This document shows positions 16,931 through 19,855 of a DNA stretch of 19,898 bases, piece after piece. The notes below the pieces were generated by a model, which was not told the DNA's origin, ran no database searches, and saw nothing but the letters and a program-made list of their open reading frames with translations. Where the stretch lies: positions 1 through 19,898 of the forward strand of contig JAYUGC010000200.1 in NCBI GenBank assembly GCA_043767805.1. Direction: 5' to 3'. Source of the DNA: Pseudomonadota bacterium (GTDB lineage: Bacteria > Bdellovibrionota > FAC87 > UBA2466). Position numbers and translations under genes: made by a program. Within the stretch, counting starts at the first letter, position 1. Each line of letters begins with the position of its first letter.

Positions 16931-19855
16931 ATGACGACGAAGCACCAAAATCAAGGACGGAACAAAGGGTTAGAAAAGCTGGTCCGGCAAACCGTGTTCG
17001 TGGCGGTGGCCCTGCTAGCTTGCGCGTGCCAAAAAAATTCAGTGCAGAACGGCGAGGCGAAAGTCCAGCTGGGGCAAGAGGAGCAGAAGGTCCTCGAGCA
17101 AAGTGTTTTCAATCCAGGCCACCTTGCTCCCGAAGTGAACGTCCTCGCCGCGGTCCAGACGACCGCTGCGACGGGCGGTGAATCGGGAACGATCGGAAAT
17201 CCGAATGGTGGCAATCCGAAAAATGACGGCGGAACGATTCCGGCTCCCGGCGGATCGACCGGCGGCTCGACTGGTGGAAGCACCGGTGGATCCACGGGCG
17301 GCACGACGGGCGGAACGGCTTCTGGCGGCGGCTCGTCGAATCCGGGCGGATCTACCGGCGGTGGCACGGCCTCGAACGGCGGCTCCACGGGTGGAACCTC
17401 GGGCGGAACGAGTGGCGGAACCACCGGCGGTGGCGCGGCGGGCGGCTCTGACGGCGGCACCATTCCCGGTGGCACGGGCGGCGGCGGCAACGACGGCGGA
17501 ACTGTTGGCGGCGGCACCACGGGTGGCGGCACGGATGGCGGCGGCGTGGTAGCGGGTGGAGGAACTTCAGGCGGATCGAGTGGCGGATCGACTGGTGGTA
17601 GCACCGGTGGAACGACCGGCGGATCCACGGGCGGCACGACTCCGGGCGGATCTAACGGCGGAACCTCCGGTGGCAACGGCGGCGCGGTCGCGGGCGGCGG
17701 AAGCACGCCTGCCGGCGGTAATGACGGCGGAACGGTCGGCGGCGGCACCACGGGTGGCGGCAACGACGGCGGTTCCACGGGATCTTCGGGCGGCGTCGCC
17801 GGTGGCGGCACGACTCCGGGCGGATCTACCGGCGGTACGACCGCGGGCGGAGGATCTTCTTCAGGTGGCACGACGGGTGGCGGATCGACGGGCGGCACTA
17901 CGCCCGGTGGTTCCACCGGTGGCACTTCGGGCGGAAATAACGGTGGAACGGTTGCCGGCGGCGGAAGTACGCCCGGTGGCGGTTCTGACGGCGGTACGGT
18001 CGGTGGCGGTACCACGGGCGGCGGAGCCGATGGCGGCACGACGACCCCCGGTGGCGGATCTACCGGCGGTGGCGGACCAATTGCCGGCGGCGGGGGCACG
18101 ACTTCCGGCGGATCGACTGGTGGTAGCACCGGTGGAACGACCGGCGGCGGAACTTCGAGTGGCGGATCTACCGGCGGTTCGACTCCCGGTGGTTCGACTG
18201 GTGGAACCTCGGGCGGTAACGACGGCGGAACTGTCGCGGGCGGCGGAAGCACGCCTGGCGGTGGAAACGATGGCGGCACCGTTGGCGGCGGCACGACGAC
18301 TCCTGGCGGTGACGGCGGCACGACGACTCCCGGTGGATCTACCGGTGGCGGCGGACCAGTTGCCGGTGGCGGAGGCACGACTCCCGGCGGATCTACTGGT
18401 GGCGGCACTACGACTCCTGGCGGGTCGACGGGCGGCAACACCGGTGGCGGAACTTCGAGCGGCGGAACCGCGGGTAGCGACGGTGGCAGCACCGGCGGAA
18501 ATCCCAGTGGCTCTACCGGCGGTGACGGCGGTAACACGGGCGGCGGAGGCCCCATCGTCGACAACTGCAAAGGAAATAACGGCGTGGGTAACGGGCTCGA
18601 CCCGCAACCTCCCGGCAATCCTCCTGTGAACGACGGCGTTGGCACGGGACCCGGGCACCCGGGCGCGAAAGGCGGCGTCCTTGCCGGAACGGGCGGAGCA
18701 AACCCTGGGCAGAACCCTTGCGTTCCCGTACCTCCGAAAGCGTCGCTCGACGTGAAGCTCTCGCGCATCTGTTCTCAGTACCGCAGCGGCGTACCGTTCC
18801 CGCAATTCGTCTTCTACGAAGAGATGGTCCATCCGATCCTCTCGGTCGAAGCCGAAGTGCCGGTGAAACAGGTCAACAAGGCCGTGCAGTACAAAGAACC
18901 GCAGCTTGCGATGCCTTGGTTCGCGGTGCAAAAGACTTACTCGACTCAGAACATTCCGAGTAATTCGAAGCTCGAGAATTATCTGATTCAGTCGAAGAGT
19001 CTCGCGAACGTCGACTTGTTCGAGGGTAAATGGCACGGCTCGTTCAGCTATAGTCTGGACGGTCTCAAAGCCAAATATCCGAAGGACTGGCAGAACGCGA
19101 TGGTTACGGTCTGGGTTTGCGACGACAGAAACGGCGACGGCGTTTGCTCGAGCGAAGGCTATCCCTGGATCGTCAGCATCAACCGCCCGGCATTCTCTCC
19201 GAAGACGATGCCCAAAGCGGTGCAGATGGACGTCTGGCACGGACGGCATATGCTCTTGAAGACCGACCCTGAGTTCTGCGAGCAGCAATATAGCCCGATC
19301 GTCTTGGATCTTGCTGGTAACGGTATCAAGTTGCAGGGCCCCGATAGCGGGACGCTTTTTGACTTGAACGATACCGGTTCCAAGGTCTACACGGGCTGGC
19401 CGAGCAGCCAGGACGACGCCTTCCTCGTGCGCGATGTGAATGGCAACGGCCGGATCGATAGCGGCGCCGAGCTCTTTGGCTCTGCGACGCTGCTAAAGAG
19501 CGGCAAGCGCGCGAAGAACGGCTTCGAGGCACTGGCGGAGTACGATGACAATCAAGACGGCCAGATCACCCGCAAGGATTCCATTTGGAAGAGCTTGAGG
19601 CTCTGGGTCGACCAGAATCACAACGGCGTATCGGAGAAGGGCGAGATCGTGAGTCTTGACCGGCTCGACCTCGAGTCCATCTCGGTGACCTACGTCGACA
19701 TGGCGGAAGTGGACACCTTCGGTAACGAGACCCGGATGCGGTCGACGTTCCGGCGCCGGGTAAACGGCGTGTCCCAGGCGCTGGTGATGGTCGATATCTG
19801 GTTCAACACGCTGACGCGGTCAGAAGATCTACCGTCAGTACTCTCACAGCGCTAA
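16931..19855 (+). CDS. Large lipoprotein: Gly/Thr/Ser-rich stalk, unknown middle domain and C-terminal FrpC-type self-processing-module-like Ca2+-binding domain
   Basis: GGAGG RBS and lipobox-like LLACA-C. About 460 aa of low-complexity repeats. The C-terminus SPIVLDLAGNGI...TGW...DDAFLVRDVNGNGRIDSGAELFG...LRLWVDQNHNGVS is collinear with the FrpC SPM. Confidence 0.8.
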   Translation: MTTKHQNQGRNKGLEKLVRQTVFVAVALLACACQKNSVQNGEAKVQLGQEEQKVLEQSVFNPGHLAPEVNVLAAVQTTAATGGESGTIGNPNGGNPKNDGGTIPAPGGSTGGSTGGSTGGSTGGTTGGTASGGGSSNPGGSTGGGTASNGGSTGGTSGGTSGGTTGGGAAGGSDGGTIPGGTGGGGNDGGTVGGGTTGGGTDGGGVVAGGGTSGGSSGGSTGGSTGGTTGGSTGGTTPGGSNGGTSGGNGGAVAGGGSTPAGGNDGGTVGGGTTGGGNDGGSTGSSGGVAGGGTTPGGSTGGTTAGGGSSSGGTTGGGSTGGTTPGGSTGGTSGGNNGGTVAGGGSTPGGGSDGGTVGGGTTGGGADGGTTTPGGGSTGGGGPIAGGGGTTSGGSTGGSTGGTTGGGTSSGGSTGGSTPGGSTGGTSGGNDGGTVAGGGSTPGGGNDGGTVGGGTTTPGGDGGTTTPGGSTGGGGPVAGGGGTTPGGSTGGGTTTPGGSTGGNTGGGTSSGGTAGSDGGSTGGNPSGSTGGDGGNTGGGGPIVDNCKGNNGVGNGLDPQPPGNPPVNDGVGTGPGHPGAKGGVLAGTGGANPGQNPCVPVPPKASLDVKLSRICSQYRSGVPFPQFVFYEEMVHPILSVEAEVPVKQVNKAVQYKEPQLAMPWFAVQKTYSTQNIPSNSKLENYLIQSKSLANVDLFEGKWHGSFSYSLDGLKAKYPKDWQNAMVTVWVCDDRNGDGVCSSEGYPWIVSINRPAFSPKTMPKAVQMDVWHGRHMLLKTDPEFCEQQYSPIVLDLAGNGIKLQGPDSGTLFDLNDTGSKVYTGWPSSQDDAFLVRDVNGNGRIDSGAELFGSATLLKSGKRAKNGFEALAEYDDNQDGQITRKDSIWKSLRLWVDQNHNGVSEKGEIVSLDRLDLESISVTYVDMAEVDTFGNETRMRSTFRRRVNGVSQALVMVDIWFNTLTRSEDLPSVLSQR
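17171..18553 (+). repeat. Intragenic Gly-rich tandem repeat region (GGST/GGTT/NDGG units)
   Basis: Translated repeats, plus an exact 41-nt direct repeat at 17582-17622 and 18107-18147. Confidence 0.9.

Follow-up and report, generated by a model that had tools for sequence, protein, structure and literature searches.

A stretch of 19,898 nucleotides from a predatory Bdellovibrionota bacterium (assembly GCA_043767805.1, contig JAYUGC010000200.1, positions 1 to 19,898; hereafter the window) carries near its end the gene of a putative lipoprotein. The C-terminal domain of this protein is homologous to the self-processing module (SPM) found in FrpC, a Neisseria protein, and has Ser-Pro at the position of the FrpC Asp-Pro. 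SPMs of the FrpC type are clip-and-link modules, known for Ca2+-dependent autocleavage and Asp-Lys cross-linking. An initial annotation of the window had treated the Ser-Pro as an oddity of one protein; in this study it was found to be the rule among C-terminal copies of the domain.

The whole open reading frame (16907..19855, 982 aa) lies on the forward strand, as do all parts of the protein described below, and extends from a GTG at 16907 to a TAA stop codon at 19853-19855, with the contig ending 43 bases past the stop codon. The true start is likely the ATG at 16931, which would give a protein of 974 aa; the orthologue at locus L004, which starts with ATG at the equivalent Met, is the best genome relative and comes from an uncultured Pseudobdellovibrionaceae metagenome-assembled genome (75% identity across all 384 aa of the C-terminal tail). 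In the sequence MTTKHQNQGRNKGLEKLVRQTVFVAVALLAC, which starts at this ATG, a basic n-region and a hydrophobic core precede an L-L-A-C lipobox with Cys39. The segment 16931..17023 was assigned as a lipoprotein signal peptide by match to the lipobox consensus pattern. Of 59 family members 44 match this pattern, as does the L004 orthologue, in agreement with the lipoprotein context given in the initial annotation.

A conserved segment with the motif E-x-x-VL-x-x-S-x-F-x-PGE (17024..17167) follows the lipobox, as judged from the family N-termini and the consensus of an alignment of 60 orthologues (A1). The next part is a low-complexity stalk of about 520 aa (17168..18736; G 46%, T 18%, S 11%), which contains 12 DGG[TASG][VIT] motifs as well as a tandem unit of 282 bp in 1.9 copies with 79% matches, and which differs in length between orthologues (proteins of 577-954 aa). 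Long open reading frames in other frames or on the other strand over the stalk (e.g. 16951-18768 on the reverse and 17556-18629 on the forward strand) are by-products of the GC-rich repeat and not genes.

Two domains are located behind the stalk. The middle domain of about 176 aa (18737..19264) is a beta-sandwich in the AlphaFold2 model and contains Cys622, Cys738 and Cys747, which are conserved in A1. Scans of local libraries did not fit it to any Pfam or NCBIfam family, a Foldseek search gave no Protein Data Bank (PDB) match with E < 1e-2, and an ESM Atlas search gave no usable match; a wide VIA-align search returned generic beta-sandwich matches only, with Z about 5. The second, SPM-like domain, within the C-terminal 187 aa to which the initial annotation had drawn attention, has a structured part of 178 aa (19295..19828), is predicted to bind Ca2+ from its sequence and model matches, and is followed by a short tail (19829-19852). 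The linker between the domains contains an Asp-Pro (GACCCT, 19265-19270), and Ser796-Pro797 (AGCCCG, 19292-19297) aligns with FrpC Asp414-Pro415. Five residues ahead of the Ser is Cys791 (19277..19279), part of a junction motif C-x3-[YF]-S-P that reads C-E-Q-Q-Y-S-P in the window protein; this Cys is present in 59 of the 60 sequences of A1. Both dipeptides lie where the initial annotation had placed them, and all the motifs it quoted are present in the translation.

Homology to the FrpC self-processing module

The 384-aa tail was applied as a phmmer query against the PDB sequences. Only the two FrpC SPM entries matched, 6sjw_A with an E value of 3.2e-32, and the first residue of the alignment is the Pro itself (query P199, equal to FrpC P415 and to residue 1 of the chain), which places Ser796 at the FrpC Asp414 position. 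A profile of the 60 family members matched 6sjw with E 1.5e-51. The AlphaFold2 model of the tail, created on the family alignment, had a mean predicted local distance difference test (pLDDT) score of 86.5 and a predicted template modelling score (pTM) of 0.73. In a Foldseek search with this model, 6sjw was found with E 7.8e-17 and TM(target) 0.80 and 6sjx with E 3.9e-15 and TM(target) 0.79, and nothing else in the PDB was below E 1e-2. VIA-align over 48,161 chains superimposed model residues 199..376 on residues 1..174 of 6sjw with Z 23.1 and a root mean square deviation of 1.8 Å over 159 aligned residues, and the runner-up reached Z 5.3. The sequence identity to the FrpC SPM is about 40%. This match is far beyond chance; the C-terminal domain is truly homologous to the FrpC SPM, and the assignment to the FrpC/ApxIVA module in the initial annotation, which had named a model and a Foldseek comparison as the check, is borne out.

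When the whole protein and the tail were scanned with local Pfam and NCBIfam libraries, only sub-threshold EF-hand/dockerin and chance matches were obtained; these libraries have no model for the domain, with PF26745 absent from the local Pfam set. PF26745 is precomputed on all 120 homologues listed in a large protein database, so that the domain already has a family entry, and a literature search found no paper mentioning PF26745. The protein has no match to Pfam HemolysinCabind (PF00353) even at E<=1 and, by pattern, no repeats-in-toxin (RTX) nonapeptide GGxGxDxUx, as the initial annotation had also noted.

Residue roles in the FrpC SPM were taken from the available excerpts of Kuban et al. 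2020 (PMC7078468). There, D478A strongly and D478N moderately lowers processing, D579A abolishes it, and the carboxylates of D478 and D579 are ligands of a transient fifth Ca2+ site; according to the available part of a second paper (PMC7846742), D414A abolishes both cleavage and coupling. In the window domain the FrpC positions D419, G424, W451, D456, L475, G477, G491 and W519 and the loops D462-E474, D499-D510 and D521-E532 are retained. Four positions are altered: D414 to Ser, D421 to Ala, D423 to Asn and, from the alignment and residue table, D478 to Ser (19481..19483). By ligand pattern the domain has four structural EF-hand-like Ca2+ sites. Loop 1 (DLAGNG, 19307..19324, equivalent to D419-G424), in which Ala and Asn replace D421 and D423, is partial, and loops 2 (DVNGNGRIDSGAE, 19433..19471, D462-E474), 3 (DDNQDGQITRKD, 19544..19579, D499-D510) and 4 (DQNHNGVSEKGE, 19610..19645, D521-E532) are complete. 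The Trp equivalent to W451 (19397..19399) and its partner, equivalent to W519 (19604-19606), are invariant in A1 and in all groups of the 385 domains described below, and the Ca2+ ligands are likewise conserved, both in the window protein and throughout these groups.

The last strand of the model contains D-I-W-F (19793..19804), of which tail residues D365, W367 and F368 are invariant in A1. It is probably equivalent to FrpC D579-L582, given that the structural alignment extends to chain residue 174. In FrpC, that strand passes across the X-Pro bond.

The window domain thus shares with the FrpC SPM the fold, the Pro opening strand 1, loops 2-4, the Trp pair, residues equivalent to L475, G477 and G491, and a D-x-W-F strand at the end. 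It differs in that the Asp414 nucleophile and D478 are both Ser, in the altered loop 1, in the conserved Cys five residues ahead of the junction, and in its location at the extreme C terminus with no RTX block behind. The protein also has a lipoprotein signal peptide rather than the type I secretion system (T1SS) context of FrpC, and its host is a predatory bacterium and not an animal pathogen. Because Asp-Pro at the module edge, the D478 carboxylate and the RTX/T1SS context are all missing, the domain is not regarded as a functional clip-and-link SPM. According to the excerpts of PMC7078468, SPMs are confined to a subset of RTX proteins.

The junction residue across the domain family

The residue before the Pro was tabulated among homologues, as suggested in the initial annotation. 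In A1, 59 of the 60 sequences have Ser-Pro and one has Thr-Pro. The initial annotation had also raised a shifted clip-and-link site, with the Asp-Pro nine residues upstream of the junction (19265-19270) as the scissile bond. Asp-Pro is present there and is the consensus (at least 50%) of that A1 column, yet the pair at tail positions 189-190 is Asp-Pro in 23 of the 60 members, Asn-Pro in 12 and one of 15 other combinations in the rest, the alternatives including NP, DV, DG, LP, DA, NG and EK. It is also part of the inter-domain linker, where the block 181-190 has a mean pLDDT of 64, the least confident part of the model, and lies outside the SPM fold, which generates the strain in FrpC. Two further C-terminal SPM-like copies in the window genome both have Ser-Pro at the junction and differ upstream of it. 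One (L002, G000:C184:45374-45886) ends an open frame of 995 aa, in which Cys/Pro-rich repeats (…CDPCSGPNPPCTCANAS…) precede a DPQSP junction, and the other (L003, G000:C58:12198-12761) is part of a 382-aa secreted protein with the junction DYQSP. The upstream Asp-Pro was therefore rejected as a conserved processing site on its conservation and linker placement, and we consider a shifted site highly improbable.

For the wider family, a phmmer search with the 196-aa module was performed against 1.84 billion cluster representatives and gave 22,721 proteins at E<=1e-3, 15,789 at <=1e-10 and 993 at <=1e-30. The best 150 of the 22,721 were pooled with 120 from a word-indexed search, and the resulting 251 proteins with 385 domains were re-aligned. 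In this pooled set, which consists of the proteins nearest to the query, so that proportions in the whole family may differ, the dipeptide at FrpC D414-P415 is Ser-Pro in 186 domains, Pro-Pro in 39, Ala-Pro in 36, Asp-Pro in 31 and Thr-Pro in 23, with 13 unresolved and 57 others; Leu-Pro occurs in seven of the 385 domains and Cys before the Pro in three.

The distribution depends on where the domain is located. Among the 137 domains of the C-terminal class (junction to end <=215 aa), 123 have Ser-Pro, ten Thr-Pro, one Asp-Pro and one Gly-Pro, and two are unresolved, so that Ser or Thr is found in 133 (97%). Internal domains with at least four RTX-like motifs downstream (n=57) have Ser-Pro in 25 cases, Asp-Pro in 18 and others in 14, and the other internal domains (n=191) have Ser-Pro in 38, Pro-Pro in 36, Ala-Pro in 36, Thr-Pro in 13, Asp-Pro in 12 and others in 56. 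In a separate sample, for which 40 SPM-like matches other than orthologues were taken from genomes spread evenly over the phylum, there were 37 Ser-Pro and three Asp-Pro junctions. Ser/Thr-Pro is near-invariant in the C-terminal class, and Ser-Pro is the rule rather than an exception. Among matches of <=300 aa, the apparent free-standing SPM-like proteins are mostly gene fragments by appearance, and none was convincing.

Many giant proteins of 3,000-7,500 aa (e.g. P0123, P0143, P0151 and P0156) contain two to five SPM-like domains each. Their internal copies mostly have a Pro-Pro or Ala-Pro junction and match no more than the first 140 or so module residues, which suggests a shorter, repeat-like form of the SPM fold. 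Two Asp-Pro SPM proteins with RTX repeats, P0088 and P0116, bear source labels that assign them to Streptococcus species as partial calcium-binding proteins, an unexpected host for the RTX/T1SS type; the label may reflect contamination or transfer.

The Ser codons at the junction (n=47) are AGY in 16 cases and TCN in 31. Because both are in use, Ser is maintained across two codon families, and Thr and Cys, the one-step intermediates between these families, are the observed minor states. At the D478 position, the 186 Ser-Pro domains have Asn in 72, Ser in 62 and Asp in 15, compared with Asp in 14 of the 31 Asp-Pro domains, a tendency and not a rule. In a domain tree (FastTree, midpoint root, 378 tips) Asp-Pro falls into 19 separate pure clades with 83 parsimony changes, a hint that the junction residue is labile, on a tree of a short domain and a biased sample.

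This leads to the question whether the Ser itself could take part in processing. In such a Ser/Thr-based mechanism, Ca2+-driven folding would strain the junction and the hydroxyl would attack a neighbouring carbonyl, either by an N-to-O acyl shift at Tyr-Ser or by attack on a twisted Ser-Pro amide, with the Asp of D-I-W-F as a possible activator; the ester intermediate would then be hydrolysed (clip) or transferred (link). Ser, Thr and Cys are the classic autoproteolysis nucleophiles, and these residues are, respectively, dominant, second and rare at the junction of the class or set described above. The use of both Ser codon families, the conserved port residues considered below together with the D-x-W-F strand, and the repeated switching between Ser and Asp on the tree also speak for such a mechanism. 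So do natural Asp-Pro variants in a C-terminal setting, namely P0217 and the three loci L017, L020 and L023, and the switching and these variants together suggest that Ser and Asp may be interchangeable in function.

The three loci encode C-terminal SPM-like domains from the window's own taxonomic family. They have no upstream Cys (…RR..DP), Met at the D478 position and a terminal strand (I/V)-N-(V/I)-W-F, i.e. Asn at the D579-like position. For true clip-and-link outside the RTX context, these domains are natural candidates.

Ser/Thr processing is nevertheless unlikely in our judgement. The FrpC scaffold without the Asp carboxylate does not cleave (D414A, excerpts of PMC7846742), and the strain in FrpC is described at the 414-415 and not the 413-414 bond (excerpts of PMC7078468). 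Attack of the Ser on its own carbonyl would form a strained four-membered ring. In addition, internal family members have Ala or Pro at the site, the D478 carboxylate is mostly replaced by Asn or Ser in Ser-Pro domains, and the literature search yielded no report of processing by a Ser-Pro SPM, nor any paper joining 'self-processing module' with 'Ser-Pro'.

Cysteines, export and the role of the C-terminal class

A Cys within 12 aa upstream of the junction was found in 125 of 133 C-terminal Ser/Thr-Pro domains, as opposed to six of 237 internal domains. It is at position -5 in 87 of 135 C-terminal domains, and Tyr is at -1 in 65 of 135. Among C-terminal members from outside the orthologue family, the SPM-like domain is free of Cys in 66 of 77, and a signal-peptide-like N terminus is present in 59 of 77 by a crude hydrophobicity rule. 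On these Cys and signal counts the C-terminal class consists of Sec-exported, disulfide-containing proteins, whereas the internal class consists of Cys-poor giant or RTX proteins. In the window family the head has four near-invariant cysteines (tail positions 24, 140, 149 and 193 in A1), which we infer to form two disulfides, and Cys791 is probably disulfide-bonded. Such a conserved Cys staple would suit a permanent joint better than a bond that is cleaved by Ser/Thr chemistry.

The C-terminal copies sit on unrelated passengers (serpin, subtilisin, NHL/SGL, cadherin-like and Cys-rich modules by Pfam annotation), with about 177-190 aa from the junction residue to the protein end. The combination of C-terminal location, Ser/Thr-Pro, an adjacent Cys and Sec or lipoprotein export is a sharply defined subclass. 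A literature search found no paper on Ser-Pro modules, on the dominance of Ser-Pro or on the Cys-bearing C-terminal class.

A strictly C-terminal location on many unrelated passengers, a conserved junction dipeptide and the frequent signal-peptide-like N terminus would also be expected of a sorting or maturation tag, cut at the Ser/Thr-Pro by a separate protease or transpeptidase after export. No candidate processing enzyme is linked to the gene in the window or in L004, and the domain also occurs internally and in tandem within giant proteins. Known sorting tags are much smaller and less elaborate than a domain of about 180 aa with four Ca2+ sites. A role as a tag is accordingly given a very low probability.

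Of the alternatives offered in the initial annotation, the one that stands as the favoured and, in our view, probable reading is a non-cleaving, Ca2+-dependent folding head domain, here of a conserved Pseudobdellovibrionaceae lipoprotein. The protein would be a lipoprotein of the outer membrane or cell surface, in which a lipid anchor is followed by the flexible Gly/Thr/Ser-rich stalk and a two-domain head, the latter composed of the disulfide-containing beta-sandwich and the SPM-like domain. By analogy with FrpC, the SPM-like domain would be unfolded without Ca2+ and adopt a compact beta-rich fold once outside the cytoplasm. Ca2+-dependent folding is expected because the fold, the EF-hand-like sites and the Trp-Trp clamp are kept. 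The principle, disorder at low Ca2+ and folding outside the cytoplasm, would be that of the RTX beta-roll and other Ca2+-triggered folding domains, as extrapolated from the excerpts on the FrpC SPM (PMC7078468); the window domain differs from these in its unique SPM fold, without nonapeptide repeat or beta-roll.

Neither an aspartyl anhydride nor clip and link would be expected in the window domain, since the carboxylates of Asp414 and D478 are both replaced by Ser and FrpC D414A is inactive. The Ser-Pro together with the Cys at -5 would instead be a fixed structural joint, by which the Ca2+ domain is kept rigid on the preceding domain. A nucleophile is not needed for the fold, as internal domains tolerate Ala, Pro and Leu at the junction. 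Across the family, the Cys-stapled Ser/Thr-Pro C-terminal form would be the common state of Sec-exported members, and the Asp-Pro clip-and-link of RTX proteins a minority specialisation of the same scaffold.

Several observations weigh against the non-cleaving head. The near-invariance of the hydroxyl in the C-terminal class, with both Ser codon families in use and Thr and Cys as minor states, argues for selection on the side chain itself, while a purely structural role for it is assumed. The FrpC 'narrow port' residues (W451, L475, G477, G491 and the D-x-W-F strand) are conserved, and a strained junction geometry may therefore persist. The composition of the pooled set, close to the query, must be counted here as well.

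The Cys-stapled Ser/Thr-Pro C-terminal domains could represent a second, chemically different Ca2+-triggered self-processing module, present thousands of times in Sec-exported proteins, an idea to which we attach little likelihood. In that case folding would put strain on the junction, the conserved hydroxyl, or a nearby thiol, would form an ester or thioester and release the Ca2+ domain or link the passenger covalently to a target, and predatory bacteria could in this way lock the stalked lipoprotein to their prey or to the envelope of their own cells.

More than 15,000 sequence clusters contain the SPM scaffold at E<=1e-10, and most retrieved copies are not Asp-Pro. The gene in the window is by itself an ordinary member of a very large class, and this class raises a clear question, whether a Ser-Pro module cleaves with Ca2+. 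If it does, clip-and-link chemistry would be widened, with relevance to protein engineering of the NeissLock type. If it does not, the SPM fold would serve generally as a domain that folds with Ca2+, and Asp-Pro self-cleavage would have arisen from it repeatedly.

Relatives and genomic neighbourhood

A survey of the phylum found a match in 72 of 201 genomes. Full-length matches (E<=1e-80, middle domain and SPM) were obtained in most genomes of the window's own taxonomic family, with a match in 30 of 32, and in a sister family of the order, with four of four; other families of the phylum gave SPM-only matches.

Paralogues were found in two four-gene operons, both on the reverse strand of one complete 3.77-Mb genome from another family of the phylum. 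The first (L011:7604-13074) encodes proteins of 945, 165, 320 and 381 aa and the second (L012:7101-12813) proteins of 987, 154, 342 and 413 aa. In each, the last protein is secreted and has a Ser-Pro SPM-like C terminus (YCGGYFSPLMVFFDD and FCGGYWSPLMVFFDD, respectively), and the 320-aa protein of the first operon has the methylation motif of pilin N termini. By gene sizes, gene order and location in the genome, rather than by a comparison of named sequences, the two agree with the operons Bd2723-Bd2726 and Bd2209-Bd2212 ('frpC'), respectively, of Bdellovibrio bacteriovorus, which are reported as attack-phase pilin-like operons linked to predation loss (PMC12034629). In a literature search combining 'Bdellovibrio' and 'FrpC', only the gene-name mention in that paper was found. 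The 413-aa (Bd2209-like) and 381-aa (Bd2723-like) proteins share with the window protein secretion, the Ser-Pro SPM-like C terminus and the junction C-x3-[YFW]-S-P. They are paralogues and not orthologues: their N-terminal domains are different, the long stalk is missing, the signal peptide is a plain one and Ca2+ loop 1 is degenerate (SPLMVFFDD).

The upstream neighbour of the gene in the window encodes a 346-aa lipoprotein with a von Willebrand factor type A (VWA) domain and metal ion-dependent adhesion site (MIDAS) (15848..16888, +; Pfam VWA E 2.6e-5), which is syntenic in L004. Upstream of it, a PilZ protein is encoded on the minus strand. The order PilZ protein, VWA lipoprotein and SPM-like lipoprotein recurs in L004, where the contig is longer and continues downstream of the orthologue with a second VWA lipoprotein and one more lipoprotein. 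The conserved neighbourhood spans 14984-16888 in the window and L004:2408-4487 and 8209-10740. By context, the VWA/MIDAS neighbour and the pilin-operon paralogues of Bdellovibrio suggest a Ca2+-dependent role in surface adhesion or contact. For Bdellovibrio biology, the conserved stalked lipoprotein and the paralogues in predation-linked pilin-like operons are flagged as candidate Ca2+-dependent surface components.

Further upstream, a tetratricopeptide repeat protein of 1360 aa is encoded at 10819-14904 on the minus strand. A 617-aa open reading frame at 5672-7525 (+) has a weak but above-threshold match to a fungalysin-type M36 metallopeptidase (E 1.7e-7).

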